From positions 1,312,001 to 1,376,000 of the forward strand of contig CBDCGL010000011.1 in assembly GCA_965216755.1 (NCBI GenBank): a stretch of 64,000 bases of DNA, read 5' to 3'. The notes under the pieces are model-generated. The model made no database searches, was not told the origin of the DNA, and worked only from the letters and a program-made list of their open reading frames with translations. The stretch is from Alphaproteobacteria bacterium (GTDB lineage: Bacteria; Pseudomonadota; Alphaproteobacteria; UBA7887). How positions within the stretch are numbered: the stretch's first letter is position 1; each line of letters opens with the position of its first letter. Positions 32,693 through 47,869 of this stretch are shown piece after piece. Position numbers and translations under genes: made by a program.

Positions 32693-33709
32693 TTACGTGT
32701 AAAGCCGCTCGCCTCTTATACCCTCATATAGATGGGCGACCTGATCCGCGTATCCGTTGAAGAGCAATGTTGGTATTTTCTCTTTCGACCCCAACCGCTT
32801 CTCAGTCCGTTGACTCCAACGCGGGTGGCGGACTTTAGGATTGACGTTCGCCCAAAAGCCATACTCGTTCGGTTGGACGTCCTCCCAAAACGTCTGCGGC
32901 CTGTCTTCCACCAGCGTGAATCGCGTGATGGACTTGATGTGCTTAAAGCCATATTTCCAAGGCACCGCGAGACGCAACGGCGCCCCATTCTGTTCCGGCA
33001 AAGGCTTGCCATAGGCGCCGACAACGACGAAGGCGAGTTCATTGGTCGCCTCGTCAATAGTCAAAGCCTCCGTATACGGCCACGGATACCACGCCTGGCG
33101 TTGGCCAGGCGCGATATCGCTGTCGAAGAAGCTTTCCATGCGAAGAAACTTGGCGTCGCTCAAAGGGCGCGCCATGGCGATCAGCTCGCTAAGCGGAAAT
33201 CCGCTCCAGGGCACCACCATCGACCAGGCTTCGACACAACGATGCCGATATACCCGCTCCTCGAGCGGCATTCTGTGAACCAAATCATCGAATGAAATCG
33301 AGATCGGTTTTTCGACCAATCCGTCGATGGTGACATCCCAGGGGCTGGTCTGAAGGTTGACGGCCGTTTTCCATATGTTCTTGTGCGAGCCGAACTCGAG
33401 AAAATTGTTGTACCGAGTCACCAACTTTTTCTCCGTGATCGAGTCGTCAGCCACGTACGCGGCATTGCGCATGACCGGGAGAAGCTCGGCAACCGAGCGT
33501 GCCCCCGCGGTCGATATTTCCGGTGCATCCGGCGCTGCCGATTGTTCGCCTTCGTCGCCCGTATCACACGCGGCGATAAGTCCCGTTACCGACACCATCG
33601 TGGAGGCTATCGCCAACCCGCGCAGAAACTTACGGCGTTCCCGGAATGTATGCTCGGGAGTCACGGCGCTCTCGTCGATCGCCCATCCGGGCCGCACACG
33701 CACCAGCAT
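32693..33709 (-). CDS. msrP: Periplasmic protein-methionine-sulfoxide reductase catalytic subunit MsrP
   Basis: RRKFL Tat motif; YNNFLEFG, YRHRCVEAWSMVVPW, NGAPLRL-x-VPWKYGFK, EYGFWANVNP, HPRWSQ. Confidence 0.95.
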   Translation of the reverse strand: MLVRVRPGWAIDESAVTPEHTFRERRKFLRGLAIASTMVSVTGLIAACDTGDEGEQSAAPDAPEISTAGARSVAELLPVMRNAAYVADDSITEKKLVTRYNNFLEFGSHKNIWKTAVNLQTSPWDVTIDGLVEKPISISFDDLVHRMPLEERVYRHRCVEAWSMVVPWSGFPLSELIAMARPLSDAKFLRMESFFDSDIAPGQRQAWYPWPYTEALTIDEATNELAFVVVGAYGKPLPEQNGAPLRLAVPWKYGFKHIKSITRFTLVEDRPQTFWEDVQPNEYGFWANVNPKVRHPRWSQRTEKRLGSKEKIPTLLFNGYADQVAHLYEGIRGERLYT

Positions 33710-33843
33710 ATCCTTACATCACCTGCCCGGCCCGAAGTACCAGATCCGAAGTCAACATATGCCGTGTACATAGCGTATATCGCGACAGCCACGCCATAAA
33801 CAAATTTGTGCGCCACGCAGTCATACCAATCCCGAGCGGCATT

Positions 33844-34266
33844 CTATTGTGAGGCAAGTGGATAAAGTATCAACGCGCCATTTGGCGCGATCCAATACCA
33901 CCCGTGAGCGCCCGCATGGATCTCAGTTGGTTCACCCGCCTCGGCCATACCAAAGAAACCCGGCACGTTCGGGACCATCGGCATAGCCGGCATACCCACC
34001 ATGCCGACCATCCCCGCTTGCGGCATGGTCGGCCCCGACGGATACAGGGCCAACTGACCCGTGGTCAGGATTCGATACCATCCCGTTGACCCCAGGACAC
34101 CCCCAGCAGTGTAGCCGCGCGTCGCAGGATCCAAGCTCGATTGGCTTGCCGCAACCGTCCCCCCTGCGACCATCAAGAAAAGACACGCCAAAACTAGGCC
34201 ACCGTAAGCCTTTAGCTTGTAGCTACCGCACCTGTCCGGTGCCACCCTCGTGCCCAGCGTGTTCAC
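33844..34266 (-). CDS. Small secreted protein with two G-W-Y...LYP motifs flanking a Met-rich linker
   Basis: Signal-like hydrophobic stretch; GWYRILTTGQLALYP, MPQAGMVGMVGMPAMPM, GWYWIAPNGALILYP; GTGA overlap with the regulator stop. Confidence 0.72.
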   Translation of the reverse strand: MNTLGTRVAPDRCGSYKLKAYGGLVLACLFLMVAGGTVAASQSSLDPATRGYTAGGVLGSTGWYRILTTGQLALYPSGPTMPQAGMVGMVGMPAMPMVPNVPGFFGMAEAGEPTEIHAGAHGWYWIAPNGALILYPLASQ

Positions 34267-35624
34267 GTCGAACCCGACGACTCCTCATGCAAACCATATT
34301 TTCGGATCAGACGGTACGTGTTTCGCTCACTTATTCCAAGTGTGGCCGCAACTTTTACCCTATGACCCGAGTATTTTTCCAAGAGATGCTTCAGATAATC
34401 TTGCTCTATTTCTTTCAAGCTCGGTTCGTGATCAAATGACAAGACCAACTCCTCGGCCTTCGGCGACTGCTCGGTCGACAGAACGACATGCTCTTCATGA
34501 ATGGTCGGATGTGCACCGGACAGAATTATCGCGCGCTCCACTACATTCTTCAGCTCTCGCACGTTACCCGGCCAATCATATGCCATCATTCTTTTCATGG
34601 CGCGCCGCGATACGCGCTTGTCAATCCGTCTTGAAAAATCGTGATTGCTAATGAAATGATTAACCAAGTCTTCAATGTCCTCTCGACGTTCACGCAATGG
34701 CGGTACCGTTATGACAAAGGCACTGAGTCGATAAAACAAATCTGAACGAAACCGGCCGTCCCGACTGAACTTCTCTAGATTGGCATTTGTCGCGGCAACA
34801 ATTCGAACATGCGCTGTCAGGTCCTTTGTGCCGCCGACGCGCCGGAATTGACCGGATTCAAGAACGCGCAGCAACTTTGCCTGGATGGACGAAGTGATTT
34901 CGCCGATCTCATCGAGAAAGAGCGTGCCGCCTTCGGCCCCCTCGATTAACCCTTTCTTCTGTCGATCAGCACCGGTAAAGGACCCACGCTCATGGCCGAA
35001 AAGTTCCGATTCGAACAACGTTTCCTGTAAGGTACAGCAGTCCAACGCGACAAAATTGCGATTTAGTCGCGCGCTGCGTTCGTGGATTTCGTGGGCGACA
35101 AGCTCCTTGCCGACACCGCTTTCGCCTTGGATCAAAACGGTCATATCCGACGGCGCCACAGCATCGATCAGACGATTGACCTGCTCCACCGCCGTGCTGT
35201 TGCCGACCAAAAAAGTTCGCCGACTGGTGCGCAACCGATCTTCAACAAACTGCAAATTGCGGCGCAGCGCGGCATTCTCCAAGACTCGGTCGACAACGAC
35301 TTCCAATTCTTCCAAGTTGACGGGCTTGGAGAGATAGTCGGCAACGCCCAACTGCATGGCCTTCACGGCTTTCTGCACAGACGCATATGCCGTTAATATG
35401 ATGACCGGTTGCTGCGCGACGAGATCCGAAAGGAATTCGTACCCGTCAGCATCAGGTAGTCGTGGATCAAGAACGATCAGGTGTGGCTCGTACGCTGTCA
35501 GATAGTTTTCCGCAGCCGCCCAACAATCGACGCCCTCGGTTGCATAGCCGACTTGGTTGAGTTGCTTGACAAGCAAACTATTCAGAACTTGATCGTCCTC
35601 AATGATCAATATGTTCGGCTTCAA
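34263..35624 (-). CDS. Sigma-54-dependent response regulator (NtrC/AtoC family: REC-AAA+-HTH)
   Basis: ILIIEDD, GESGVGKE, ESELFGHERGSFTGA, FLDEI, WPGNVREL, C-terminal HTH; TTG start after AGGGAG. Confidence 0.93.
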   Translation of the reverse strand: MKPNILIIEDDQVLNSLLVKQLNQVGYATEGVDCWAAAENYLTAYEPHLIVLDPRLPDADGYEFLSDLVAQQPVIILTAYASVQKAVKAMQLGVADYLSKPVNLEELEVVVDRVLENAALRRNLQFVEDRLRTSRRTFLVGNSTAVEQVNRLIDAVAPSDMTVLIQGESGVGKELVAHEIHERSARLNRNFVALDCCTLQETLFESELFGHERGSFTGADRQKKGLIEGAEGGTLFLDEIGEITSSIQAKLLRVLESGQFRRVGGTKDLTAHVRIVAATNANLEKFSRDGRFRSDLFYRLSAFVITVPPLRERREDIEDLVNHFISNHDFSRRIDKRVSRRAMKRMMAYDWPGNVRELKNVVERAIILSGAHPTIHEEHVVLSTEQSPKAEELVLSFDHEPSLKEIEQDYLKHLLEKYSGHRVKVAATLGISERNTYRLIRKYGLHEESSGST

Positions 35625-37587
35625 CGCAGGCTCCCTGATCGACAACTGCCTGATATCCGGCGCGCGGCAACCGAATCTCAAATAGGGTTCCGACGCCGAC
35701 ACCACTCCTTACCTCGATCGTGCCCCCGTAGCGCTCGATGATAGCTTTGGCAATCGAAAGGCCCAATCCGGTCCCTTTTTCACCATCTGCCCGGCGGCTG
35801 AAAAATGGATCATAAATGTGAGGAAGGTCTCCAGGCTGGATCCCACAGCCCGTATCCTCGAATATGATTTCTACGTTGTCTTGCGTCTCCGAAGTCGCGA
35901 TTCTGAGTTCGTCGCCCGGCGACATGGCGTGAAACGCGTTTTGCACAAAATTCAGGACAATCATTCGAATCTCGCTGTCGCTGCACAGTACGCGCGGTTG
36001 CCGCGGATCCAGATCAAGCTCTATGCGATGTTCATGCGACTTGGATTCAAACGACAATAGAGACACGGTGTCGCTGATCGCACGGTTGACATCGACCAGT
36101 TCCGGGGACCTGCTTGGTGGTGCGCTCAACTTCATCAAGCGCTCTGTCACTTCGATGCATTTATCGATCTCAGTATCGACAGTACTCAGATACTGACCTA
36201 TGTCATCAAGGGACTTATCTTCCCGCCCCGTTGCTCGGAGCGCCGCTTGCAGCGCCAACCTGATAGAGCTCAGCGGATTGTGGATTTCGTGCGCGACACC
36301 CGTGGCGAGTTGGTCCAATTCCTTCAACTTCTGCTCTTGGGAAATTTGCATCTCGTTTGATAGGTCGCGAATGGACTCAACGACCAGCGTCTTCGGCCGT
36401 CCCTCTTCTTCCAACATAAGTGGTGCGGCGTAAACCTGCACCCGCGACAGGGACCCGTCGTTTAGAACATGCTGGTGGATCGTCTTTACGGGTTTCCCTG
36501 TGCGCGCGATTTCAGTCAACGGACAAATGACCAATCCAGCCGGACAGGGGCTTTCGCGGCGATGACTTGACTCATAGCAGGGTATGCCGACCACGTCGGT
36601 CATATGAACGCCAAGATGGCGACAATAGGCCGAATTCGCCGTGACGATCGCGTGGTCCGAATCGATCACACGCAATGGATCTGGATTTGCTTCCAACAAT
36701 GCTTGCAGAAATTGCCCTCGCCTTTGCGATTCCCGGATACTTGTCGCCAGATTGTGTGCCATTTCGTTGAAACGGTTTTCAAGCTCGGCCATTTCGTCAC
36801 GCCCACGTACGGCGACTCGGCTATCAAGCTGTCCCGAAGACAGTTTGCGCGTCGCCGTCGCCAACTGGCGAACTGGGCGAACCACGTTGTTGCGGACAAA
36901 CCACCATCCAGCACCAACCGTCAACAACACCACGAGCGCGCCCGAACCGGTTAACATAAAGGCCAGCATACGGGCATCCCGACGCACCGGCGCGGCGTCA
37001 TAGTCGACAAAGATGACACCATTGACCGGATGCGCTTCGACCGAACCATGACACCCGATACAAGCAGGGCGGTTCCGGATCGGGTTCACGCTGCGCAACA
37101 CCTCCCGTCCCTGCGCATCAACAGTAAAAACACTGCGCGGCCGGGACGCCGTCTCCGATGCGTGACACCCGGCGCAGGCAGGATCGGTGCCGCGGTCAAA
37201 CCGTATTCCGACACGATCTCCTGACGATGCAAACCTCACTTCACCCGCCGGGTTCACAATCATGACGCCGCTAATCCCCTGCTGCTGACCGAGGCGTACG
37301 ACAATATCCCGCAATCCACTCAGGTCTCTTTTCAGCATCGCATTCTCTAGCGATGCTTGGAGCAAGCGATTGATCTGTGTTGAGGCCTCCGTGCGTTCGC
37401 GCTCCAGTTGCGCGCGATACATGCCGACAAACAGCACTAAGAAAATAAGCGACGCGGCAACCAGACCAATCGTCATAATGACGGTAAATCTACGATCTAG
37501 TCGCGATATCAACGGCGTGACCCTCAGCCAGAAACCCCTTTTGACAATGTCACAAATCGGACATTTCAATTGGGCCCAAAAAAGCAC
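35599..37587 (-). CDS. Sensor histidine kinase with two periplasmic CxxCH heme-c motifs, HAMP and a Cys-rich PAS-like domain (start uncertain, possibly TTG 37512)
   Basis: CAGCH and CIGCH between two TM helices; HAMP; AHEIHNPL H-box; N, DTGCGI, F and GTGLGL boxes. Confidence 0.9.
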   Translation of the reverse strand: MLFWAQLKCPICDIVKRGFWLRVTPLISRLDRRFTVIMTIGLVAASLIFLVLFVGMYRAQLERERTEASTQINRLLQASLENAMLKRDLSGLRDIVVRLGQQQGISGVMIVNPAGEVRFASSGDRVGIRFDRGTDPACAGCHASETASRPRSVFTVDAQGREVLRSVNPIRNRPACIGCHGSVEAHPVNGVIFVDYDAAPVRRDARMLAFMLTGSGALVVLLTVGAGWWFVRNNVVRPVRQLATATRKLSSGQLDSRVAVRGRDEMAELENRFNEMAHNLATSIRESQRRGQFLQALLEANPDPLRVIDSDHAIVTANSAYCRHLGVHMTDVVGIPCYESSHRRESPCPAGLVICPLTEIARTGKPVKTIHQHVLNDGSLSRVQVYAAPLMLEEEGRPKTLVVESIRDLSNEMQISQEQKLKELDQLATGVAHEIHNPLSSIRLALQAALRATGREDKSLDDIGQYLSTVDTEIDKCIEVTERLMKLSAPPSRSPELVDVNRAISDTVSLLSFESKSHEHRIELDLDPRQPRVLCSDSEIRMIVLNFVQNAFHAMSPGDELRIATSETQDNVEIIFEDTGCGIQPGDLPHIYDPFFSRRADGEKGTGLGLSIAKAIIERYGGTIEVRSGVGVGTLFEIRLPRAGYQAVVDQGACVEAEHIDH

Positions 37588-37647: not shown

Positions 37648-38700
37648 TTATGCCAAGACTTGAAAGAGATTGAGCTTTCGTCCGGTTTCACGACATACCC
37701 AACACGTCGCGGACTCAAGAGCCTGGTCGCCCGGCATGTGAAACGGCGTACCACAGCGCGCACAGACCTGGCGCCGCAACGGCAATTGAAGCTGCGTGGG
37801 CGCGATGTCGGTCCCGATCGATATGGCGTGCTGTCTGCAAACATCCACACACAGCATACACCCACTGCATCGGTTCGCCTTCAGCCCATAGTGCGTATTG
37901 TCACCGTCACGCCGCAGAGTGATCGCGCCATGTGCGCACAAGCGCACGCAGGCGTCACAGCCCGAGCACCGTTCGCTGTCGATCTCCGGGACAAAGGGAA
38001 GTAGAGCCGTATCGCCATCCGCGAACAGAGGTGGCCTGTGCTTTGGCCGTGGCGCCTCGTCCGCGACCGTCTGTCGCTCGACGCGATCGATAAGTGTACT
38101 AACCATACCCTTCAGGAGCGAACGACGGCCGAGCCCGTTGTCGCGCCGGCGCACTTCGGCGCCGTCACGCGCCGCCCGCCACTTGCCGACGGGCAGCAAG
38201 CGAATGGCCAAAGCCGGCTGGTCCCGCGCCGACAAATACTGGTTCACGGTATCAACGACAGACTCAAGGCGCATACACGCCCCCCGCCGGCATGTGTCAC
38301 ATGGTGCCTCGGCGACCCACAACGTATAGATTCCGCGGTCGTGAAGTTGGAACAAAGCACGCATCGAAATTGCATGGACACATGGCACGACGCCTGCGCC
38401 GTCGTCGCTTGTCGCAGTATCGCAGGCGACGAACGCGACGCCTTGCCCGCGCACATCACGCATTGTTGTGGCAAATTTGGCCTCGATCGCGGATTCTGGG
38501 CATACTGCCGCGCACAGGCCGCAGCCGTCGCAACGGCCGACGTCGATCATCAAGCCATCATCGCACAACGACAAAGCGCCTTCGGGGCAGGCCTTGACAC
38601 AGGCGGTGCATGTCGCATCGACCGTACGCCCGTGGACGCATAAGTTGCCATCAATCTCGGGACATTGATCGTGCGCCGCATCCCTCGGCGAATCCGCCAT
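37648..38700 (-). CDS. Polyferredoxin-like multi-[4Fe-4S] protein
   Basis: CTACVKACP, CDGCGLCAAVCP, CSGCDACVRLC, CSGCMLCVDVC plus C-terminal CxxC...CxxC. Confidence 0.85.
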   Translation of the reverse strand: MADSPRDAAHDQCPEIDGNLCVHGRTVDATCTACVKACPEGALSLCDDGLMIDVGRCDGCGLCAAVCPESAIEAKFATTMRDVRGQGVAFVACDTATSDDGAGVVPCVHAISMRALFQLHDRGIYTLWVAEAPCDTCRRGACMRLESVVDTVNQYLSARDQPALAIRLLPVGKWRAARDGAEVRRRDNGLGRRSLLKGMVSTLIDRVERQTVADEAPRPKHRPPLFADGDTALLPFVPEIDSERCSGCDACVRLCAHGAITLRRDGDNTHYGLKANRCSGCMLCVDVCRQHAISIGTDIAPTQLQLPLRRQVCARCGTPFHMPGDQALESATCWVCRETGRKLNLFQVLA

Positions 38701-38714
38701 TTCCAATCGACCAA

Positions 38715-39500
38715 TCACCAACTCGGCGCGGTGCCAGGTAGATAAGTTGGGCCCAATTCGCCGCAGTCTTTTGAAAATCTCTTGTTGGCGCGTAGCTGCT
38801 CGTAGTTGGGCTTGGGCTGATCAAGTGCAAGTGCGAACAATTCACGTGCGCGATGAAGATAGGCTGCAGTCGTTCCCGCCAAACCCGCGTAGAAAGGCAT
38901 TTCGCACCGCGCCATGACGCGCTCCGCGAAAGCGTCGATCCAGAGCAGGAGGTGCTGATCCAAAAACGCTGCCGCGTCTCTCACCGCCTGCAAATCGCGT
39001 CCATCCGTCAGCAACCGGCCAACAAACTGCAGTTGCAAAACCAGGTGATCATCCGCGCGACTTGCCCAGTCTTGAACACAAACACCGTGGCGCCGGTACC
39101 AAGCCCGCACTTCAAACATCGGTTGCTGACGTTCCAATCCATCTTCGTCCAGCCACACCGATTCGTAAGGGGACGCGCGGTAGCCATGCGTCAAATAGAT
39201 TTCGCCATATTCGACCGCGAGCCGATCCAGTACGTCATCACCAGGTGTATCTGGCAACGCCGCCACCGCCTGATCGAATATATCGAGTGCGGCGCGTCCC
39301 GCCGCCGTCTCCAGTCGAAGACCCAGGCTTTGGGCAAGCCCTTCTTCACGCAGCGCTGCTAGGGTCTTCGCCTCTGGCTCCTTGTCATGAAGCATGGCCA
39401 AGAGCTTGAGATCCGCGGCCACACTCGTCCGCAGTTGGTCGAGCAAATCACGACCCCCGGGCATCTCGGACGCCACGGCCGATGCCATTTCAGCCGGCAT
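38715..39500 (-). CDS. TorD/DmsD-family molybdoenzyme chaperone
   Basis: SPYESVW, ADDHLVLQLQF, FLDQHLLLW, FY. Confidence 0.88.
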   Translation of the reverse strand: MPAEMASAVASEMPGGRDLLDQLRTSVAADLKLLAMLHDKEPEAKTLAALREEGLAQSLGLRLETAAGRAALDIFDQAVAALPDTPGDDVLDRLAVEYGEIYLTHGYRASPYESVWLDEDGLERQQPMFEVRAWYRRHGVCVQDWASRADDHLVLQLQFVGRLLTDGRDLQAVRDAAAFLDQHLLLWIDAFAERVMARCEMPFYAGLAGTTAAYLHRARELFALALDQPKPNYEQLRANKRFSKDCGELGPTYLPGTAPSW

Positions 39501-40161
39501 CGACGCGGCCTTTGCTGTGCGCCACAAAAGCAATCGACGGTCTGGTTAACGCTGGATCCGCCAAATTCTTGACTTGCTGCGTCACTTTGTCCGCCGGACC
39601 CAACGCCTTAGTCTCATAGCCACCCGCTACGATCTGGTCAATCGGCCCAACATCCAGCACGCGCATCATGCAAGCCATGACGCAATAGGGTTTTCGACCC
39701 GCATCAATTTCGTCGACGCACATATTGCATTTCTTGACCAGGTTATCTTCCGGATCAAATTGCGGTGCACCATAGGGGCATGCGGCCTCGCATCGCCGAC
39801 ACCCAATGCACAGCGTCGAGTCGATATCAACGATGCCATCTTTCTTGCGCTTGAATATGGCCCCGGTCGGACATGTCGGCAAACATGCCGGTTCTGCGCA
39901 ATGGTTGCATGACATATTAACCTTGTACGCATAAACGTCCGGGAACTGGCCGCCTTCGATGTATTGCACTCGGCGAAATCGAGGCCCTGGGCCAAGACCA
40001 TTCTTGTCTTTACAAGCAATTTCGCACGCGCGGCACCCGATACAATCAACGTTGTGATGCACGAATCCGAGTTGCGTATCGGGCACGACCGGCTTGTAAA
40101 CTTCGCGCTTGCGCCTCTTGACTGCTTCTTTGACCCGTGCCTTATCGATCTGGTTCGTCAT
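39490..40161 (-). CDS. dmsB: DmsB-like four-cluster Fe-S subunit
   Basis: CIGCRACEIACKD, SCNHCAEPAC..CP, CIGCRRCEAACPYGAPQ, KCNMC...CVMAC. Confidence 0.85.
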   Translation of the reverse strand: MTNQIDKARVKEAVKRRKREVYKPVVPDTQLGFVHHNVDCIGCRACEIACKDKNGLGPGPRFRRVQYIEGGQFPDVYAYKVNMSCNHCAEPACLPTCPTGAIFKRKKDGIVDIDSTLCIGCRRCEAACPYGAPQFDPEDNLVKKCNMCVDEIDAGRKPYCVMACMMRVLDVGPIDQIVAGGYETKALGPADKVTQQVKNLADPALTRPSIAFVAHSKGRVDAG

Positions 40162-40184: not shown

Positions 40185-42725
40185 TTAGTTGTCACGCCGG
40201 AAAACGTGGCCACGTGCCGTGGCAAGCTTGTCCCATCCGGGCCTGTGGGTGAGCTCTGTCTTGGACATGTTGACCAGAATCGTATTGTACGCGAACGCGC
40301 CCGCCGGACTCGGTTCGTCGGCTGTCAAGAAGTCCGGATTGCCCGAGCGGTCGACCCCTGTTTCATCGAGATCCATCCAGGCCCCTTCGTGCAGAACGAC
40401 GACGCCGGGCATGCACCTTTCGGTCACATAGGCCGGCACAACCGTGGCACCACGATCGTTCCAAACATAGACGGCGTCACCAGTCTTGATACCCAACCCC
40501 TCGGCGTCTTTCGTGTTGATCGTCACCTCTTGCTCGTAGGTCTCGCGCAACCAAGGAATGTTGTTGAAGATCGAATGGGTGCGCCACCGGGGATGCGGCG
40601 TGATCATGTGGAACGGATACTTCTCCGCTTTCGGGTGATTGAGCGACTCCCACGGCTCAATCCATTTCGGGATGTAAGGGATCGGCGCGCCAAACTGCGT
40701 CTTCTTCCAATCCGTGACCGACGCCAACTGTGTCGAGAAAATCTCAACCTTTCCTGACGGAGTCGAGAACGGTTGACCTTTCTCGACTTGATCCCGGAAC
40801 GCAACGTGTGGTTCGTCGAGCTCAAATTTGTAGACCCCACGTTTCTTGAACTCATCCCACGATATCTCGACGTGGTGGTGATGCCGTACTTTGGTCTCCC
40901 ACCACTCACTGAGATACGCTTCGTCGACAGCGTCGTCATTGTAGAAATAGTCGCGCGTGGCCTTCGGATTGAAGACGTTTCCAAATCCCAATCGGAAGCC
41001 GAGCTCGGTGAAGATCTGCAAGTCGCTTTTGCTTTCCCCCAACGGCTCAATGACTTTCGGCCGATGAATGTAGTAATGCCCCTTGTACCAAGGTAGGGCC
41101 ACGTCGTGCCGTTCGAAATGCGTGGCTACCGGTAGTAACACGTCGGCCCAAATCCCGGACGGGGTTATCGTGGAGTCTTGGCAAACCACGAGATCAAGCT
41201 TCTTTATGGCTTCGATCTCTTTGTTGATATTCGTCAACTGATTGAACCAATCGGATGCCTGCCACCAAATTGCACGGATATTCGGAATCACGCCGTCCAT
41301 TGGCCCAGGTTTTGGCCACAATCCAACATCCTCGCGCCGCACATACGGGTAGTTCAACACACAATGCGCCCACCGATCGGACTTAATCGCAGCCGCGTGC
41401 ACGTTAGCATATTGATCGTATGGGCCGGCGACGCTTTCCATATGCCAGCCCTTGCCGACACCTTCACTCGAACCGCCCAAAACACCGATGTTCCCGGTTT
41501 GCGCTTGCAGCGCCGCGGCCATACGGCTGTATTGTTCCCCATAGGCGGCGCGCCCGGGCGCCCAAGACGCCTTGAGCGCGGCTGGCTTGGTTGTGCCATA
41601 CATTTCGGCCAATTTCTTGATGTCCGCGGCGGACACACCGCAAATGGGTTCGGCCCACTCCGGTGTTTTTGGTTGACCATCATAACGGCCATAAATGTAG
41701 TCGCGGAAGTTCTCCATATTGGCCGCCCAGGGCGGCATGGTGCCCTGATCCATTCCCAAGCAGAATCTATCGATGAAATCTTGATCCTGCCAATTATTCT
41801 CAAAAATGTGGAAGGCCATGGCGGCAAGCATCGCCGCGTCTGTGTTCGGCTTGATCGGAATCCACCATGCGTCGTAGGCGGCTGCCGAGTCCGTGTACTG
41901 AGGATCGACGACGACAAATTTGCAGCCGCGTTGCTTCGCCAGCCGCATATAGTAGAACGTATTGCCGCCATGAAATGTGTAAGCCGGATTCCAGCCCCAC
42001 ATAATGATCAATTTGGAATGAGCGAACGCGTCATCCTCGTTGCCGTCTTCGATTGTTCCGAACGTCTGTAGTGAACTAAATGTTGTACCTTGATAGGATG
42101 GCACGGACCATGACACGGTGCGGCAGCCAAATATGCCGAGGAACCGACCCAGAGACCCTTCGATCTGATCCGACTTGTGCAGGGCACCCCAAGACGCACC
42201 CGCATAGGACTGATCGAGAATGGCCGTCGGGCCGTATGTATTCTTCAGGTGCAACATGCGCTCGGCGAGATAGTCAAGGGTATAGTCCCAAGACGCGCGT
42301 TTGAACTTGCCCTCACCACGTGCGCCGACCCGGATCATTGGGTAAAGCAACCGTTCCGGCGAATAAATACGCGATCGATACGATCGGCCACGCAAGCAAG
42401 CCCGCACTTGCGGCACCGCTTCCGTGTCAGTGTTAAACGCATCGCCTTGATAGGTTCCGTCGTCCGTCGACAAGCGAACGATCACATTGCCCTTTTTGTG
42501 CGCAACCAGCATATGGCGCGAACCACAGTTGTGTGCGCAGCTGGTGACAACCGTGGTGAGCTCATCATCCGTGTAATAGGGCTCATAAGCGAACGCGTCA
42601 GCCTGTTGGCTCTGTGCGGTGCTCACCAAGCCGGCCGTCGCGCCGGCGGCGGCCGATTGCAGAAAGCCCCGCCGCGAAACATTGAACGCTGATCTCAATT
42701 CATCCAGGCGATTTTGTTTAGTCAT
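40185..42725 (-). CDS. dmsA: Tat-exported DMSO reductase family molybdoenzyme, DmsA-like (substrate unresolved)
   Basis: SRRGFL Tat motif; CAHNCGSRH...RACLRGRS; RLLYPMIRVGARGEGKF; PNTDAA; PKTPEWA; TPSGKVEI; RTHS. Confidence 0.8.
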   Translation of the reverse strand: MTKQNRLDELRSAFNVSRRGFLQSAAAGATAGLVSTAQSQQADAFAYEPYYTDDELTTVVTSCAHNCGSRHMLVAHKKGNVIVRLSTDDGTYQGDAFNTDTEAVPQVRACLRGRSYRSRIYSPERLLYPMIRVGARGEGKFKRASWDYTLDYLAERMLHLKNTYGPTAILDQSYAGASWGALHKSDQIEGSLGRFLGIFGCRTVSWSVPSYQGTTFSSLQTFGTIEDGNEDDAFAHSKLIIMWGWNPAYTFHGGNTFYYMRLAKQRGCKFVVVDPQYTDSAAAYDAWWIPIKPNTDAAMLAAMAFHIFENNWQDQDFIDRFCLGMDQGTMPPWAANMENFRDYIYGRYDGQPKTPEWAEPICGVSAADIKKLAEMYGTTKPAALKASWAPGRAAYGEQYSRMAAALQAQTGNIGVLGGSSEGVGKGWHMESVAGPYDQYANVHAAAIKSDRWAHCVLNYPYVRREDVGLWPKPGPMDGVIPNIRAIWWQASDWFNQLTNINKEIEAIKKLDLVVCQDSTITPSGIWADVLLPVATHFERHDVALPWYKGHYYIHRPKVIEPLGESKSDLQIFTELGFRLGFGNVFNPKATRDYFYNDDAVDEAYLSEWWETKVRHHHHVEISWDEFKKRGVYKFELDEPHVAFRDQVEKGQPFSTPSGKVEIFSTQLASVTDWKKTQFGAPIPYIPKWIEPWESLNHPKAEKYPFHMITPHPRWRTHSIFNNIPWLRETYEQEVTINTKDAEGLGIKTGDAVYVWNDRGATVVPAYVTERCMPGVVVLHEGAWMDLDETGVDRSGNPDFLTADEPSPAGAFAYNTILVNMSKTELTHRPGWDKLATARGHVFRRDN

Positions 42726-42795: not shown

Positions 42796-43596
42796 TCACT
42801 GCGCGTTGATGCGAAAGCGTGACGCCGACTCGGTCGGGCGATCGACCGCCCATTCCGGCGTTTCTTCCGGCATGTCCGGCCAAGGATGTCGCGGGTATGG
42901 ATACGATGTCGCGTACCACGCACGGCCACCATGACAGCCGTAGCAAACATCTGAGCTCTCTCTTGCCAGTTCTTCTATGGCATCTGCCTTGAGGTAGTTG
43001 ACGTTGTGCCGAACCGTACGGAACAGTTCCTCATGACACAGCTGGCATCCATTGGGTGTCGCCTCATCCTCCAGATCAACACGAACTTCTGGCCAAGGCC
43101 CCTCGACGCCGAGCATCAGTTCGTTTGGAAAACGCCCATGACACAACAAGCACGTTTCTTGAGGGACCACCGACTTACGTAAACTAAATCCAGCGTCAGC
43201 GGCGGTCGGTGGTATGGGTGCTTCTTCACGGGGATCGTGACCCAGGTGGCAGGTGTTGCATTGCAAATCCATAACCTGCGTCGCGTATGGGGTTATCAAA
43301 TGCCTCCGATGAAAAGTTTCTTGATCTCCCTGATATGTATCCAATGTCTGATACCACGCCGTTGATTCCACAGCTTCAACGCCTGCCGGCGACTCGCTTA
43401 GAACGCGGCGGTCGATAATTTCCTGGTGACAGGACAAACATTGATCGTTCGTTGCTGACTCGATTGCCGGCCGGAAATGAATTGGATCCCAGATGGCGCT
43501 CTCATAGTCGATCTCCGCGGCACTAGCACCGGACGCCGCCCACAACCCGACATACATGGCAGTCAACGGCCGCACGATGGCCATCACCTTATTCAT
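42796..43596 (-). CDS. Periplasmic pentaheme cytochrome c
   Basis: Signal peptide; five CxxCH motifs: CLSCH, CNTCH, CLLCH, CQLCH, CYGCH. Confidence 0.88.
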   Translation of the reverse strand: MNKVMAIVRPLTAMYVGLWAASGASAAEIDYESAIWDPIHFRPAIESATNDQCLSCHQEIIDRRVLSESPAGVEAVESTAWYQTLDTYQGDQETFHRRHLITPYATQVMDLQCNTCHLGHDPREEAPIPPTAADAGFSLRKSVVPQETCLLCHGRFPNELMLGVEGPWPEVRVDLEDEATPNGCQLCHEELFRTVRHNVNYLKADAIEELARESSDVCYGCHGGRAWYATSYPYPRHPWPDMPEETPEWAVDRPTESASRFRINAQ

Positions 43597-43967
43597 TGTT
43601 GCCCCACCACTTGTTGCGTCGCCCCACTCATGGAGGCCGTTTCTTCATTGGATATCTCGCTGTGGCTCTGGTGCCATCCACGAATGTCGTACGGTCCGGT
43701 CATGCCTGGACGTGTAAAAGGCGTGAACCAGGCCCCCTGATCTTCGAGAAAACGGAGACTATAGGGATAAGGACTGTCGACGCCTGTGAGGGCGTGGTCA
43801 TACCAAGCCCCATTCTTTTCCAACTCATGGACCACCGGCGCGTCTGCCGGCCGCTGATCTGGCTTGGTTCCAGCGACTGAAAGAGTTGTTTGGCTGGCTT
43901 GCGCGCCTACATGTCCGAGACTGGCCAGAACGACACCCGCCAGCGGCACAAGTTTCCACAGTGTCAT
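43593..43967 (-). CDS. Small secreted hypothetical protein
   Basis: Signal peptide MTLWKLVPLAGVVLASLGHVGA; aromatic-rich core; ATGA overlap with the cytochrome gene. Confidence 0.72.
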   Translation of the reverse strand: MTLWKLVPLAGVVLASLGHVGAQASQTTLSVAGTKPDQRPADAPVVHELEKNGAWYDHALTGVDSPYPYSLRFLEDQGAWFTPFTRPGMTGPYDIRGWHQSHSEISNEETASMSGATQQVVGQQ

Positions 43968-44082
43968 GCTATTTCTCACTCTTCTTTTTCTTGCCCGCAC
44001 GCGTCGTCCCTCCCGGCTGGTAAACGCTGTCAAAGAAAATCCTGAACTCTTGGTCATCCTGCCAGTCGCTGGCCTCATCCGG

Positions 44083-44541
44083 CTAGTTTGTCACGTCGGA
44101 GTTATCCTGATCCACATTGCTCGGTCCCGCCATCGGTTGTGTGGCAGTCGGTGCCTGGCCATGCATCCACGGCATGGAGCGCGGTCCTTGTTGGCCAAAT
44201 AACAAGCCCGCCGGTGCGTAAAGCAGCAGCCCACCATCTGGCGCGACCCGAAAGAACCCGCGGGAATTGACCAGATTTGTGCTGCCGAACATGCCCAGGA
44301 TCGTGTACATCACCTCAGGCGGCACGACTTGGCTCACAGGATAAAGGACGATCCCCCCATTTGGCATAAACTGAAAGAAGCCATGGGCGTCCACCAACGA
44401 ACCAACGGCGATCGGCTGATCTGGATTAGCCGGCACAAGCGACTGACCATCTTGCGCGAGAACTTGCATCGGTTTGGCCGCCATGAATGCTGTCATGAGC
44501 AAGACGACGCCAAAACTTGTCACACGCCTAATTACAATCAT
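44083..44541 (-). CDS. Small secreted protein with two G-F-F...LY motifs (related to 33844..34266)
   Basis: Signal peptide ending VLA; GFFQFMPNGGIVLYP and GFFRVAPDGGLLLYAP. Confidence 0.72.
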   Translation of the reverse strand: MIVIRRVTSFGVVLLMTAFMAAKPMQVLAQDGQSLVPANPDQPIAVGSLVDAHGFFQFMPNGGIVLYPVSQVVPPEVMYTILGMFGSTNLVNSRGFFRVAPDGGLLLYAPAGLLFGQQGPRSMPWMHGQAPTATQPMAGPSNVDQDNSDVTN

Positions 44542-44690
44542 TGTCTAACTCACAATGTTCCGATCGTGCCATCATGCGTGAAGGTCGCAATCGGGAAGAA
44601 AGAGGCTTCGCGGTGAGTGTCCGGAAAACAACTGACTCGACTTCTGTCGGCGTTCACCGGACACATACACCATGCTAGCGCTTTAGCGTT

Positions 44691-46088
44691 TTAGCGCGGC
44701 GGTTCCCAGTTGCGGGCTGCCATACCTGGCATACCTTGCATGCCCCACATGCCGGGCATACCCTGCATGCCCCACATTCCGGGCATACCCTGCATGCCCC
44801 ACATTCCGGGCATACCCTGCATGCCCCACATTCCGGGCATGCCCTGCATACCCCACATTCCGGGGTAGCTGGCGTACATCCCCCACATGCCGGGGTTCAT
44901 CCCCCACATACCAGGCATACCTTGCATGCCCCACATACCGGGCATGCCGTACATGCCGCCCATGCCCCACATGCCAGGGTTCATGCCCCACATACCGGGC
45001 ATACCTTGCATGCCCCACATACCGGGCATGCCGTACATACCGCGCATGCCCCACATGCCAGGCATTCCGTACATGCCGCCCATACCGGGCATGCCGTACA
45101 TGCCGCCCATGCCCCACATGCCAGGCATTCCGTACATGCCGCCCATACCGGGCATGCCGTACATGCCGCCCATGCCCCACATGCCGGGGTTCATCCCCCA
45201 CATGCCGCGCATGCCATACATGCCGGGCATTCCGTACATGCCACCCATGCCGCGCATGCCCCACATGCCGGGCATTCCGTACATGCCGCCCATGCCGGGA
45301 TAGTTCGCGTACATGCCATACATACCGCCCATACCGGGCATTCCGTACATACCGCCCATGCCCCACATGCCGGGGTTCATCCCCCACATGCCGCGCATGC
45401 CATACATGCCGGGCATTCCGTACATGCCACCCATGCCGCGCATGCCCCACATGCCGGGCATTCCGTACATGCCGCCCATGCCGGGATAGTTCGCGTACAT
45501 GCCATACATACCGCCCATACCGGGCATTCCGTACATACCGCCCATGCCGGGCATGCCGTACATGCCGCCCATACCGGGCATGCCGTACATGCCGCCCATA
45601 CCGGGCATTCCGTACATGCCGCCCATGCCCCACATGCCGGGGTTCATCCCCCACATGCCGCGCATGCCATACATGCCGGGCGTTCCGTACATGCCGCCCA
45701 TGCCGGGATAGTTCGCGTACATGCCGCCCATGCCCCACATGCCGGGGTTCATCCCCCACATGCCGCCCATGCCGGGATAGTTCGCGTACATGCCGCCCAT
45801 GCCCCACATGCCGGGATTCATCCCCCACATGCCGCGCATGCCATACATGCCGCCCATGCCCCACATGCCGGGGTTCATCCCCCACATGCCGCGCATGCCA
45901 TACATGCCGGGCATTCCGTACATGCCACCCATGCCGGGATAGTTCGCGTACATGCCGGGCATGCCTTGCATGCTCCACATGCCGGGATACATCCCCTGCA
46001 TACCTTGGCCGGCGGATGGCTGTGACATCATTAGCATCGCGCCAATGACCATCGCCGTACCGGCCACTCTCCTTAGCTGCTTCAACAT
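44691..46088 (-). CDS. Secreted methionine-rich (Gly-Met-X)n repeat protein, 465 aa
   Basis: Signal peptide, GGAAGG RBS-like sequence upstream; mature part almost entirely [18 protein letters not shown] triplets interrupted by NP and YANYP. Confidence 0.85.
45166..45548. repeat. Exact 186-bp-period tandem duplication inside the Met-rich gene
   Basis: 45166-45362 is identical to 45352-45548 (for example TAGTTCGCGTACATGCCATAC at 45301 and 45487). Confidence 0.8.
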
Positions 46089-46372
46089 TTAACGAACCTT
46101 CCTCATAACAATTGTTCGGTCGGCTTAGACTTCACTCAATCCTCGAATCCCAGTTGCAAGTGCCGCCGTTCAAGGTCCGACACCGACAAATCTCGATCTT
46201 GGACCGGCGTTGCGGACAGAACATCAGCTATGCATCGTTGTTCCGTGAACCCTATCCATTTGTTCGCACTGCAACCTTTCGCCGTTTTATTGACGGCATT
46301 GAATAAAAAGATCTGTGGCTTACGCCCCGTTCTTGAGGGAACGGCCCAGTTGCTCTGTCAGAATTCCCAAGC

Positions 46373-46402
46373 CATGGTGGGCGCTCTGTTGCGCCCACCA
46401 TG
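46373..46402 (-). terminator. Stem-loop just downstream of the first Met-rich gene (terminator or mRNA stabiliser)
   Basis: CATGGTGGGCGC-TCTGTT-GCGCCCACCATG, perfect 12-bp stem; no clear U-tract. Confidence 0.5.
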
Positions 46403-46413
46403 CTGCAGTCGAC

Positions 46414-47451
46414 TTAGCCGTCTTTATCGTCGTCGGACTCACCCGACATGCCTTCCATGCCGGACATACCTTCCATGCCGGTCATGCCGGACATACCGCT
46501 CATGCCGGACATACCTTCCATGCCGGACATACCGCCCATGCCGGACATACCTTCCATGCCGGACATGCCTTCCATGCCGGTCATGCCTTCCATGCCGGTC
46601 ATTCCGGGCATCCCCGTCATACCCATTCCAGGCATGCCGTACATTCCGCCCATGCCGGGCTGTAACGCAGCCAAGTTTGCCGGATAGAGCGTGATGACGT
46701 TACCAGGGCCAACGGTGAAGTAGCCGGCGAAGACCGCGCCACCACTCATGCCTTGCATGCCGCCCATACCGGGCATGCCTTGCATGCCGCCCATACCGGG
46801 CATGCCTTGCATTCCCCACATACCGGGCATGCCTTGCATACCCCACATACCGGGCATGCCTTGCATACCCCACATGCCGGGCATGCCTTGCATTCCCCAC
46901 ATGCCGGGCATGCCTTGCATTCCCCACATACCGGGCATGCCTTGCATTCCCCACATGCCGGGCGTGCCTTGCATTCCCCACATGCCGGGCATGCCTTGCA
47001 TTCCCCACATGCCGGGATAGTTGGCATACCGTTGGCCTTGCATGCCCCACATGCCGGGGTTCATCCCCCACATGCCGGGCATACCTTGCATACCCCACAT
47101 ACCGGGATAGTTCGAATACTGTTGACCTTGCATGCCCCACATGCCGGGGTTCATCCCCCACATGCCGGGCATACCTTGCATACCCCACATGCCGGGCATA
47201 CCTTGCATACCCCACATACCGGGCATACCTTGCATACCCCACATACCGGGCATGCCTTGCATACCCCACATGCCGGGATAGTTCGAATACTGCTGACCTT
47301 GCATGCCCCACATACCGGGCATACCTTGCATACCCCATTGATTGGGCATAGTTTGCTGGCTATGTGCCGTGCTTGTCGCGCTCAGTGACGCCATCGCAAC
47401 AACGGCAACGAGGCCAACAACCCTCCCAATCTTTTTTAGCGTACTAATCAT
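46414..47451 (-). CDS. Secreted methionine-rich repeat protein, 345 aa: (GMQGMPGMW)n, one LYP motif, acidic (GME/GMS/GMT)n tail
   Basis: GAGG RBS; signal peptide ending TAHS; 27-bp repeat units; GYFTVGPGNVITLYP; ends GESDDDKDG. Confidence 0.85.
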   Translation of the reverse strand: MISTLKKIGRVVGLVAVVAMASLSATSTAHSQQTMPNQWGMQGMPGMWGMQGQQYSNYPGMWGMQGMPGMWGMQGMPGMWGMQGMPGMWGMQGMPGMWGMNPGMWGMQGQQYSNYPGMWGMQGMPGMWGMNPGMWGMQGQRYANYPGMWGMQGMPGMWGMQGTPGMWGMQGMPGMWGMQGMPGMWGMQGMPGMWGMQGMPGMWGMQGMPGMWGMQGMPGMGGMQGMPGMGGMQGMSGGAVFAGYFTVGPGNVITLYPANLAALQPGMGGMYGMPGMGMTGMPGMTGMEGMTGMEGMSGMEGMSGMGGMSGMEGMSGMSGMSGMTGMEGMSGMEGMSGESDDDKDG

Positions 47452-47623
47452 TCGTACCTCTATGTCGCCGTCTCCCGTGGAGACAGCGGTCCTTTAATGT
47501 GCTGACCGAGAAAAGACGCCGCAGCACCCGGGATGAACATTTCCTAGGTACTGTGGCTCGAATTCCCACCTAACTGCTTGCCTTCCCGTTGACGCCGCTG
47601 ATTGCGGCGCCGGCTTTTTAATA

Positions 47624-47639
47624 AGCAGATTTCGTGCCA
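47624..47639 (-). promoter_or_regulatory. Sigma-54 (-24/-12) promoter for the Met-rich/DmsAB cluster
   Basis: Minus strand TGGCACGAAATCTGCT = GG-N10-GC, close to consensus TGGCACG-N4-TTGCW; about 170 bp upstream of ATG 47451; a sigma-54 activator is encoded in the cluster. Confidence 0.8.
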
Positions 47640-47656
47640 GCCTTAGCGTGCAAGCG

Positions 47657-47669
47657 TAAGTATTTGAAA
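47657..47669 (-). promoter_or_regulatory. Putative IHF site between promoter and UAS
   Basis: Minus strand TTTCAAATACTTA versus WATCAANNNNTTR (one mismatch), in an AT-rich patch. Confidence 0.45.
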
Positions 47670-47716
47670 TTTTGTATGAATTCGACTTCGGCCACGTTCA
47701 AGGGCCTGTCTCTAAC

Positions 47717-47796
47717 CTGCCAAATTGGCAGACAAATCGGAGACCGAAATTAAGAATCTCTTGTTTTCAGCAGCTTGGAACCTGACATAATGTCAG
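47717..47796. promoter_or_regulatory. Two palindromic candidate upstream activator sequences
   Basis: CTGCCAA-A-TTGGCAG (47717-47731) and CTGACAT-A-ATGTCAG (47782-47796), both perfect inverted repeats. Confidence 0.6.
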
Positions 47797-47869
47797 CGTC
47801 GCGCCGAATGCAATGCGTTATCTGTGGCGAGGGCTCGGCGCGGCGTCAGTCCAGTGCGCGCCGACGGCG

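Follow-up and report, generated by a model that had tools for sequence, protein, structure and literature searches.

Why would a bacterium encode long methionine-repeat proteins next to a molybdoenzyme of the dimethyl sulfoxide (DMSO) reductase type? This question is raised by a stretch of 64,000 nucleotides from an alphaproteobacterium of the UBA7887 lineage (assembly GCA_965216755.1, contig CBDCGL010000011.1, positions 1,312,001 to 1,376,000; hereafter the window). A cluster on its minus strand starts with genes for two Gly-Met-X repeat proteins, MetR1 and MetR2, and also encodes a DmsA-like reductase, a pentaheme c-type cytochrome, and a two-component system. Here we found that a Met-repeat gene, the reductase, and their partners form a conserved and horizontally mobile module. 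We tentatively propose that this module runs a periplasmic Met/Met-sulfoxide cycle, analogous to the MrpX-YedY system but made of different parts, and regard this proposal as close to an even call.

Met-repeat proteins encoded at the head of the cluster

The cluster (window positions 32693-47451, minus strand) consists of 13 head-to-tail open reading frames (ORFs), all on the minus strand and thus co-oriented, as the original prediction had it. Their order of transcription is MetR1, MetR2, sp152, sp161, cytochrome, DmsA-like, DmsB-like, TorD, NapF-like, kinase, NtrC-type activator, sp140, and MsrP. Genes were assigned by family scans (Pfam and NCBIfam) and CxxCH motif counts. The first two genes, recognized from the ORF and its composition, are as follows.

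46414..47451, minus strand: MetR1, 345-aa Gly-Met-X repeat protein (GMW/GMQ/GMP units), predicted to be secreted
44691..46088, minus strand: MetR2, 465-aa Gly-Met-X repeat protein (GMY/GMW/GMP/GMG units), predicted to be secreted

These proteins had been described as about one-third Met over their repeats, and the Met spacing of 3 agrees with this for both. In MetR1 (28% Gly, 24% Met), 80 of the 83 Met residues are preceded by Gly and 71 Met-Met spacings are exactly 3; the corresponding counts in MetR2 (34% Gly, 29% Met) are 130 of 136 and 114. The third residue of the triplet is mainly Q, W, or P in MetR1; in MetR2 it is mainly Y, W, P, or G. Cys is absent from both proteins, His occurs once in MetR1 and not in MetR2, acidic residues are almost nil in MetR2, and both proteins are nearly uncharged. 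MetR1 additionally has one non-repeat motif (GYFTVGPGNVITLYP) and an acidic GMS/GME tail. On inspection, both N-termini, basic and then hydrophobic, read as signal peptides.

At the DNA level, the two genes are built of diverged 9- and 27-nt repeats that match at 62-95%. The Gly codons directly before ATG vary in MetR1 (GGC 40, GGT 28, GGA 9, GGG 3) and MetR2 (GGC 83, GGT 24, GGA 14, GGG 9). Since this variation is synonymous in the Met/Gly frame and non-synonymous in the antisense His-rich frames, the Met/Gly frame is the selected one. RefSeq annotates the same frame, as 'hypothetical protein', in a relative (Rhodobacter xanthinilyticus plasmid pEJ01).

To place this composition within the genome, we scored 58,492 stop-to-stop ORFs of at least 50 aa by the number of Met residues in any 30-aa segment. 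At least 6 Met per 30 aa were found in 89 ORFs and at least 9 in a handful, namely MetR1 and MetR2 with the alternative frames that overlap them, two Met/His-rich proteins of copper-type loci, an ORF with a (MA)n run, and one 65-aa ORF. The last of these (C11:2531405-2531599) scores 9, and the (MA)n ORF (C11:1393588-1394175, plus strand) contains a perfect (Met-Ala)n run (MAMAMAMAMAMAMSM) within a 196-aa open frame. The two Met/His-rich secreted proteins (C11:26255-26947 and C11:2891414-2892073, both plus strand; ~230 and ~220 aa) share a 'VVINIYPGG' motif, whose hydrophobic-x-Tyr-Pro core is faintly like the 'LYP' motif of sp152, sp140, and MetR1. Each adjoins copper-resistance-like genes (P-type ATPase tail, cytochromes c, two-component systems, multicopper oxidase, and CopB-like), read from the sequence rather than by family scan.

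In four public runs, the short-read contigs agree exactly with the unique flanks and end within each of the two repeat genes; the exact lengths (345 and 465 aa) are therefore supported by a single assembly. Over positions 46389-46650, the 3' acidic GMS/GME part of MetR1, contigs at least 90% alike gave summed word depths of 980-3358 in these runs, versus 2-8 on the unique flanks. Other organisms in those four samples probably carry similar GMSGM-coding repeats. The Pfam Collagen model PF01391 scored 99 and 82 bits on the Met-repeat proteins, in which Pro makes up 8-9% and charged residues are almost absent, and the NCBIfam adhesin models scored far under their cut-offs. Collagen-like proteins have Gly-X-Y triplets that form a triple helix, are rich in Pro or charged residues, and contain a trimerisation domain. 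We set the collagen-like reading aside as compositional, the Pfam hit probably reflecting Gly at each third residue.

The Met spacing brings in a rival explanation, in which MetR1 and MetR2 are periplasmic sponges or chaperones for soft metals (Cu(I), Ag(I), or similar) and the reductase keeps their thioethers reduced or has an unrelated target. The Cu(I) 'Mets' motif is M-x-x-M, and CusF has a Met2-Trp site; the unbroken M-x-x-M spacing resembles the former, and the Met and Trp content recalls CusF. The other strongly Met-dense secreted proteins of this genome sit in copper-type loci (with roles read as above), and MsrP of Escherichia coli repairs CusF under copper stress (PMC9302797; this and the other PMC papers are cited from partial text). 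On the other hand, MetR1 and MetR2 have 1 and 0 His and MetR2 is almost without acidic residues, whereas the copper-locus proteins are rich in both Met and His. No copper-resistance gene recurred in the 80 related loci described below, and metal binding does not explain why, in three classes, these proteins are tied to a Mo oxotransferase that has a cytochrome of its own. We consider this explanation quite improbable.

Conservation and mobility of the module

Downstream of the Met-repeat genes, the cluster contains the following genes, which together with a Met-repeat gene recur in other genomes.

43593..43967, minus strand: sp161, ~100-aa secreted protein with the conserved C-terminus ...QGAWYTPFxxPGMTGPYDIRGWH; the ORF may start as far up as 44078
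42796..43596, minus strand: pentaheme c-type cytochrome (5 CxxCH; family scan and motif count); signal or anchor at the N-terminus; start codon overlapping the stop of sp161 (ATGA)
40185..42725, minus strand: DmsA-like molybdenum-bis(pyranopterin guanine dinucleotide) (Mo-bisPGD) catalytic subunit, 846 aa, with a twin-arginine translocation (Tat) signal (family scans and alignment)
39490..40161, minus strand: DmsB-like four-cluster Fe-S subunit (family scan)
38715..39533, minus strand: TorD/DmsD-family chaperone (PF02613), start codon uncertain
37648..38721, minus strand: NapF-like poly-ferredoxin (TIGR00402 napF, under its cut-off)
35599..37587, minus strand: sensor histidine kinase whose N-terminal domain has two CxxCH (haem c), followed by HAMP, PAS, HisKA, and HATPase (family scan and motif count)
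34263..35705, minus strand: NtrC-type sigma-54-dependent response regulator (PF00158, E = 2.4e-65), start codon uncertain

The DmsA-like protein is unique in its own genome, where the next paralogue is 35% identical, and its clade is present in only one of 60 related genomes, so vertical inheritance is not the explanation for its presence. The 119 best database clusters besides its own are 75-84% identical, and the named ones come from Alpha-, Beta-, and Gammaproteobacteria. A scan using one genome per species gave at least 825 DmsA-clade loci. We compared the 80 best-scoring of these, many of which are cut by contig ends and all of which are kin rather than independent samples. Matches were found for DmsA in 80, the cytochrome in 77, DmsB in 77, TorD in 70, MetR1 in 57, sp161 in 54, the regulator in 51, the kinase in 50, and the ferredoxin in 34 loci; sp152, sp140, and MsrP each had none.

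Because BLAST identity between low-complexity proteins is not homology, Met-repeat genes were also scanned for by composition. A same-strand, Met/Gly-rich (G-M-X)n ORF was present in 38 of the 53 loci with at least 2.5 kb upstream of the cytochrome and absent from 15, and a partial Met-rich ORF lay at the contig edge in 17 of the 27 loci with shorter upstream sequence. The 38 pairings span Alpha-, Beta-, and Gammaproteobacteria and include one on a conjugative plasmid. A general lack of Met-rich genes in homologous loci had been named as a finding that would refute the original prediction, and the opposite was observed. Because such repeats break short-read assemblies, the number of loci lacking a Met-repeat gene is a maximum. 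In one of the 15 (L036), an N run at about 8746-9017 interrupts a Met-repeat gene, with partial Met-rich ORFs on both sides.

The relatives' Met-repeat proteins are 56-394 aa long, contig-end fragments included, and contain 14-34% Met; signal peptides are present wherever the N-terminus is complete. Their units are mostly of the GMSGMGGM type, often together with a Cys-containing motif of the GW[VT]CTQW[TS] type that is absent from MetR1 and MetR2. Since the non-repeat motifs differ, it is the (G-M-X)n composition and the operon position that are conserved, not the sequence. The conserved core thus comprises a Met-repeat protein, the ~100-aa secreted protein, the pentaheme cytochrome c, DmsA, DmsB, the TorD-like chaperone, the haem-c kinase, and the sigma-54 activator, often with the NapF-like ferredoxin. 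In the genome studied here, this module is enlarged by two large aromatic-rich polymers and two small secreted paralogues, with MsrP appended.

A complete module is located at 6224-17206 of R. xanthinilyticus pEJ01 (L099; NZ_CP017782.1), with a 244-aa GMSGM protein and a six-haem cytochrome; RefSeq annotates it in generic terms alone. This 264-kb plasmid is typed conjugative, and the copy lies beside an IS1380-family transposase, indicating that the module is mobile. When all ORFs in the flanks of the 80 loci were clustered, no copper, cld, or msr genes recurred and nothing else was widespread; the minor recurrent genes were those for a cytochrome d1-domain (NirF-like) protein in 8 loci and for NirDL-like and tetrapyrrole-methylase proteins in 4 each.

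Some relatives have a second class of Met-repeat protein, small lipoproteins (Cys after the signal peptide) with GMSGM(G/S)Q units (L018 9466-9840, L020 9336-9707, L049 9482-9844, L093 1504-1887, and L094 1477-1884). Their genes lie between those for the cytochrome and DmsA in Hyphomicrobiaceae, and elsewhere in the genome, with seemingly unrelated flanks, in Betaproteobacteria. A Met-repeat query across four genomes with bare loci found nothing strong elsewhere in them (best E values 5e-8, 3e-5, and 1e-3, and none in the fourth). Two of these weak, short hits are small GMSGM lipoproteins with apparently unrelated flanks of a housekeeping type, as judged from an ORF listing rather than a family scan.

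The reductase, its predicted small subunit, and its electron carriers

The best NCBIfam model for the DmsA-like protein was TIGR02166 dmsA_ynfE (607.1 bits; cut-off 777.7), followed by YnfE, DmsA, YnfF, BisC, and TorA. The protein is 34% identical to E. coli DmsA, and its nearest solved structures are Rhodobacter DMSO reductase and trimethylamine N-oxide reductases. Ser210 aligns with the Mo ligand Ser147 of DorA (1eu1) and Y174 with DorA Tyr114; both residues are invariant in 46 clade members, placing the enzyme in the Ser-ligated type. The canonical FS0 [4Fe-4S] motif has four Cys, and the motif here is C63-x3-C67-x3-H71...C110, with the His at the third position invariant in the 46 sequences. 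The DmsB-like protein scored 190.5 bits with TIGR02951 (cut-off 214.1). Pfam and NCBIfam scans of the 13 proteins found no membrane quinol-oxidising subunit of the DmsC/NrfD type. The NapF-like poly-ferredoxin is probably a cytoplasmic maturation factor. Together with MsrP, treated below, the family scans bear out the earlier view that the cluster encodes two molybdoenzymes of S-oxide-reducing families.

The sp161 family (~95-120 aa) has no Pfam or NCBIfam match and falls into unnamed 'hypothetical protein' clusters in Protein Atlas, and the residues G33, P36, R39, G62, W80, P83, Y93, D94, and R96 are invariant in its alignment. Folded alone, sp161 is mainly coil (predicted local distance difference test [pLDDT] score, 70.6). 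We predicted its complex with DmsA residues 45-846 in three runs, using our own alignments and 3 controls. The score was 0.74 (runs 0.69, 0.82, and 0.74) versus 0.01 for the best of the 3 controls. Of 157 solved complexes, 116 reached that mark, as did 2 of 215 mismatched pairs; these counts are rough for a prediction made with our own alignments. The runs share at least 47% of contacts, with a partner pLDDT of at least 60. Residues 63-99 of sp161 are predicted to contact DmsA residues 78-84, 117-143, 520-525, 559-565, 722-724, 783-785, and 828-832. These predictions suggest that sp161 is a new small subunit of the reductase that binds DmsA; we know of no solved DmsA-type complex with such a small subunit.

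Among 71 complete cytochrome orthologues, 53 have five CxxCH motifs, 1 has four, and 17 have six. The six-motif proteins measure about 490-555 aa and carry their additional part N-terminally; in the two that were scanned, this part is a class-I cytochrome c domain (PF00034). This N-terminal part indicates electron exchange at the level of cytochrome c.

The order of redox carriers allows a rival explanation in which electrons flow in reverse: the enzyme would be a dehydrogenase of thioethers or reduced sulfur that feeds the cytochrome c pool via DmsB and the cytochromes, and the polymer would be an electron store or decoy. The path from Mo through the Fe-S clusters and the pentaheme cytochrome to the extra haem part (17 of 71 orthologues; class-I cytochrome c in the two scanned) is downhill in that direction, and dimethyl sulfide dehydrogenase, a member of this superfamily, provides a precedent for thioether oxidation. 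However, that enzyme is an Asp-ligated type II enzyme, whereas the DmsA relative here is of the Ser type. By rough arithmetic, the 83 to 136 Met residues per molecule would store mere seconds of respiration, and neither a physiological rationale nor a supporting neighbour gene was found. The suggestion that the polymers act as a 'rechargeable battery' is not supported: the same arithmetic counts against it, and only the carrier order speaks for it. We regard reverse flow as highly improbable.

Regulation and co-variation of the Met-repeat genes

A candidate promoter precedes the cluster.

47624..47639, minus strand: sigma-54-type promoter motif TGGCACGAAATCTGCT, with GG and GC elements at canonical spacing, 173 nt 5' of the MetR1 start codon

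The pattern TGGCAY-N6-TGCW has a single match in the 64-kb window, namely TGGCACGAAATCTGCT, and ~0.87 matches are expected by chance; we therefore rejected the motif as statistical evidence by itself. It counts because of its position 5' of MetR1 and because the cluster encodes a sigma-54 activator. The predicted promoter has the -24 GG and -12 GC elements, and the PF00158 domain identifies the regulator as a bacterial enhancer-binding protein. MetR1, followed by MetR2, comes first after this predicted motif, as previously described. The Met-rich genes may be co-regulated with the reductase. The overlap of stop and start codons, also claimed before, is firm for the 4-nt overlaps of small subunit/cytochrome and regulator/sp140; the remaining cases hinge on uncertain TTG/GTG starts. 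The promoter region (47452-47870) contains no FNR box, and matches with up to 2 mismatches sit elsewhere in the window. FNR/CRP-like palindromes (TTGAT-N4-ATCAA, up to 2 mismatches) number 53 in the 64 kb versus 24.6 expected, and 0 of 100 shuffles reached 53.

The wiring by sigma-54 and a haem-c two-component system recurs in relatives, supporting this part of the original prediction. In addition to the kinase (50 of 80 loci) and the regulator (51 of 80), at least one CxxCH was found in 48 of 49 kinase orthologue ORFs. Strict sigma-54 motifs were rare, numbering 32 on the gene strand in the 1.39 Mb of the 80 loci. Such a motif lay just 5' of the first module gene in 15 loci by an automated search, and inspection by eye added two borderline cases, making 17. 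Most Rhodobacterales loci were without a strict match.

Both flanks were long in 44 loci; of these, 29 had both the Met-repeat gene and the kinase/regulator pair, 11 had neither, 2 had the pair alone, and 2 had the repeat gene alone. We built a DmsA tree from 43 of these loci and the window; L072 was dropped for a broken DmsA match, and L036 was scored as Met-positive. The loci with neither are nested among complete ones in the Azonexaceae/Rhodocyclales part of the tree, and the minimum numbers of changes were 6 for the Met-repeat state and 8 for the two-component state. On well-supported branches, the two traits changed alike in ~2.7 of 3 independent pairs, and one pair changed in opposite directions in 2 of 200 random pairings; with so few pairs, the trend does not reach significance (median p 0.25). 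Gain or loss of the Met-repeat gene thus accompanies that of the kinase/regulator pair, which suggests that the polymer travels with the regulators and that the enzyme core stands without both. This core, consisting of the small subunit, cytochrome, DmsA, DmsB, and TorD, can occur without the polymer and regulators.

This pattern bears on another rival explanation. The enzyme may be a respiratory or detoxifying reductase whose substrate is an oxyanion or oxide of high potential, such as chlorate, bromate, iodate, or selenate. The Met-repeat protein would then be a co-expressed guard that quenches the chlorite or hypohalite product, as MrpX does beside perchlorate reductase, and that may be recycled by MsrP or the same enzyme. 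The gene set here parallels the perchlorate-reduction island, in which a Mo reductase and a multihaem cytochrome occur together with a chaperone, a kinase and its sigma-54 activator, YedY, and a Met-rich protein (for the MrpX/YedY/SigF part, see PMC4436054). Chlorate reduction causes oxidation of periplasmic Met in E. coli (PMC9805139, PMC12503329). The enzyme core lacks the Met-repeat gene in 15 of 53 loci, and the Met-repeat gene goes with the regulators rather than with the enzyme. Electron supply at the cytochrome c level is typical of high-potential acceptors, and the extra N-terminal haem part of 17 of the 71 cytochromes fits it. The DmsA-like protein also lies under the DmsA/YnfE cut-off and lacks the full SYGW motif described below. 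Nevertheless, chlorite dismutase (PF06778) was not found in this 99.8%-complete genome, and none recurred near the 80 loci. Ser-ligated Mo, the form seen here, is typical of S- and N-oxide reductases, while the dedicated reductases of (per)chlorate and selenate belong to the Asp-ligated type II. No neighbouring gene points to any oxyanion. We judge this explanation, the main rival, unlikely.

A putative periplasmic Met/Met-sulfoxide cycle

We favour a Met/Met-sulfoxide cycle over these explanations, since it is the most economical link of a one-third-Met protein to a Mo-bisPGD enzyme of the sulfoxide-reducing branch. In this cycle, the haem-c sensor kinase and the NtrC-type activator would induce the sigma-54-controlled module, and the cell would then secrete much flexible (Gly-Met-X)n protein. 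The exposed thioethers would accept oxygen atoms from two-electron oxidants, namely hypohalous acids, chloramines, chlorite, peroxides, or peroxynitrite, and Met would thereby become Met sulfoxide. A dedicated, Tat-exported molybdoenzyme of the S-oxide-reductase type, made up of DmsA with its Ser-ligated Mo, DmsB, the small subunit of ~100 aa, and a pentaheme cytochrome that replaces the DmsC membrane anchor, would reduce the sulfoxides back to Met with electrons supplied by the respiratory chain. The Gly-flanked, probably disordered chain may give an enzyme with a deep funnel easy reach to every sulfoxide.

Several lines of evidence support this cycle: the conserved pairing of the genes, the enzyme family, the operon logic, the predicted sp161-DmsA binding, the absence of copper, cld, and msr genes from the recurrent flank genes, and precedents. 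DorA of R. sphaeroides reduces protein-bound Met sulfoxide, with QWGAGM(O)QAEED as preferred peptide (PMC7402097), and its Gly-Met-Gln context resembles the WGMQGM units of the window. BisA of Campylobacter concisus respires S- and N-oxides, repairs periplasmic Met sulfoxide, and is thought to be fed from Qcr through a c-type cytochrome (PMC10653797). MrpX is a sacrificial Met-rich periplasmic protein recycled by the Mo reductase YedY (PMC4436054).

Other observations weigh against it. In 15 of 53 loci the core has no Met-repeat gene beside it, so the polymer cannot be the sole substrate. Runs of M-x-x-M are a classic ligand pattern for Cu(I) and Ag(I). The DmsA-like protein falls short of the TIGR02166 cut-off, and at the position of the SYGW motif of DorA it has S173-Y174-A175-G176 (SYAG), in which Y174, A175, and G176 are invariant; SYGW is reported to be necessary for sulfoxide reduction in DorA-like enzymes (PMC7402097). 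A high-potential acceptor or reverse flow would be a better fit for the six-haem form of the cytochrome, even though cytochrome-c-fed S-oxide reduction exists in Campylobacter (PMC10653797). Finally, the 80 compared loci, being the best-scoring of at least 825, are kin.

A broader version of the cycle, which we consider distinctly unlikely, would make protein-bound Met a periplasmic oxygen-atom relay, in which poly-(Gly-Met-X) turns diverse two-electron oxidants into Met sulfoxide that is respired by the cytochrome-wired molybdoenzyme. The oxidants could possibly include chlorite or hypohalite that this molybdoenzyme itself produces from halogen oxyanions. If true, the module would be a general 'oxidant reductase', perhaps reducing oxyhalides independently of chlorite dismutase, that has spread horizontally through the genomes of at least 825 species.

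MsrP, other secreted proteins, and flanking genes

The remaining three genes of the cluster had no match in the 80 loci.

44083..44541, minus strand: sp152, small secreted protein with two '[FW][FY]x[IVF]xPxGxxxLY' motifs; no Pfam or NCBIfam family
33844..34266, minus strand: sp140, small secreted protein containing a short linker rich in Met (GMVGMVGMPAMPMVP); start codon overlapping the regulator stop (GTGA)
32693..33709, minus strand: MsrP, catalytic subunit of the periplasmic protein-Met-sulfoxide reductase (NF003767, 420 bits; cut-off 207)

MsrP has a visible RRKF twin-arginine motif in addition to its NF003767 score, and its gene starts 134 nt after sp140 with a sigma-70-like motif just upstream. 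This genome has three MsrP paralogues over the curated cut-off (C11:1344708-1345703, which is the window copy, C11:3781049-3782026, and C11:3088015-3088965). No MsrQ-type gene lies beside any of them, and a search for the MsrQ/YedZ-type domain PF01794 found none in the 99.8%-complete genome, with an E. coli control genome positive in the same search. MsrP was counted as a member of the system in the original prediction. This part was not upheld: MsrP was found within 10 kb in none of the 80 related loci, is one of three paralogues, and has a sigma-70-like motif of its own, so that 'two S-oxide enzymes in one system' applies at most to this lineage. Its attachment is lineage-specific and fits the Met-sulfoxide theme as weak evidence.

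sp152 and sp140 are paralogues (BLASTP E = 1e-7), and the short motif '[FWY][FWY]x[IVF]xPxGxxxLYP' is common to both and to MetR1. A word-indexed, near-length search of 5.8 billion proteins with sp152 returned only sp152 itself, and the protein appears to be specific to the lineage. sp140 is apparently coupled translationally to the regulator gene, judging from the overlap of the two.

The flanks are unrelated to the cluster. Upstream lies a gene for an Ldh_2-family dehydrogenase, and downstream are genes for a gluconate-2-dehydrogenase-subunit-3-like protein and a GMC oxidoreductase. The downstream pair (29481-32198, minus strand), directly 3' of MsrP and with a Tat signal on the subunit-3-like protein, resembles a separate operon for a periplasm-facing dehydrogenase and is absent from the related loci.

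Significance and comparison with known systems

If the cycle operates, the idea behind MrpX-YedY would extend from a small peptide with a repair enzyme to an inducible oxidant sink powered by the respiratory chain and made of unrelated parts. A large clade that is 75-84% identical across classes, and whose members now carry no annotation beyond 'molybdopterin-dependent oxidoreductase' or 'anaerobic DMSO reductase', would gain a physiological substrate. A name would also be given to a new small subunit. The carriers are found among the genomes of at least 825 species, including wastewater denitrifiers, phosphate accumulators, large sulfur bacteria, and marine Rhodobacterales. Among them are culturable, non-pathogenic bacteria such as Rhodovulum imhoffii DSM 18064, Dechloromonas sp. 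CZR5, Zhengella mangrovi, Alsobacter ponti, Jhaorihella thermophila, Ruixingdingia sedimenti, and R. xanthinilyticus with pEJ01. The polymer is also striking as a material, with up to 136 Met in 465 residues and neither Cys nor His (MetR2).

Full-text literature searches, with most subscription journals outside their scope, found no described system of this architecture, in line with the original prediction, and the partial text of a 2026 review of sulfoxide reductases contains nothing like it. As far as we know, the module is uncharacterised and apparently unnamed.

Among Met-rich periplasmic copper proteins, CusF, PcoE/SilE, and the Met loops of CopA/PcoA share the M-x-x-M spacing. However, they combine Met with His or Asp and belong to cop/cus/pco operons with copper-sensing regulators, whereas the Met-repeat proteins of the window have almost no His (MetR1 1, MetR2 0) and belong to a Mo reductase operon without a copper gene.

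DmsABC and YnfEFGH of E. coli, which are membrane-bound reductases of S- and N-oxides and selenate, are the best-scoring families for the A and B subunits, and a chaperone of the TorD/DmsD type is common to them and the module. The module nevertheless fails several tests of membership in DmsABC: the A subunit is only 34% identical to DmsA, both subunits are under the curated cut-offs, and a periplasmic pentaheme cytochrome stands in place of the DmsC/NrfD-type anchor.

DorA and C. concisus BisA/BisB are, like the window enzyme, Tat-exported, periplasmic Mo-bisPGD enzymes of the Ser type, and DorA and BisA act on unfolded or Met-rich periplasmic proteins (PMC7402097, PMC10653797). They have no FS0 cluster, DmsB subunit, or dedicated substrate protein, whereas the window enzyme has DmsB, a Cys3-His FS0 motif, SYAG for SYGW, a pentaheme partner, and an invariant small subunit.

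The closest analogue is the hypochlorite-scavenging cycle MrpX-YedY1/YedZ1 (MsrPQ) of Azospira suillum PS, and its citation for this locus was apt, as both have a secreted Met-rich protein and a periplasmic Mo sulfoxide reductase. The logic held in common would be sacrificial oxidation of Met with enzymatic recycling (PMC4436054). MrpX is small, with 20% Met and 44% charged residues (PMC4436054), whereas the proteins here have 345 and 465 aa and 24-29% Met, are strictly (G-M-X)n, and are nearly uncharged. The MrpX reductase is the sulfite-oxidase-fold YedY with the membrane protein YedZ; here it is a bis-PGD enzyme of the DmsAB type with a pentaheme cytochrome and a new predicted small subunit, and the genome encodes no YedZ/MsrQ partner for the window's MsrP. 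Control is by SigF/NrsF in the former and by sigma-54 with a haem-c kinase in the latter. The module thus has neither the small charged peptide beside yedYZ nor the SigF/NrsF control that define MrpX-YedY, and it most probably works like that system without being a member of it.

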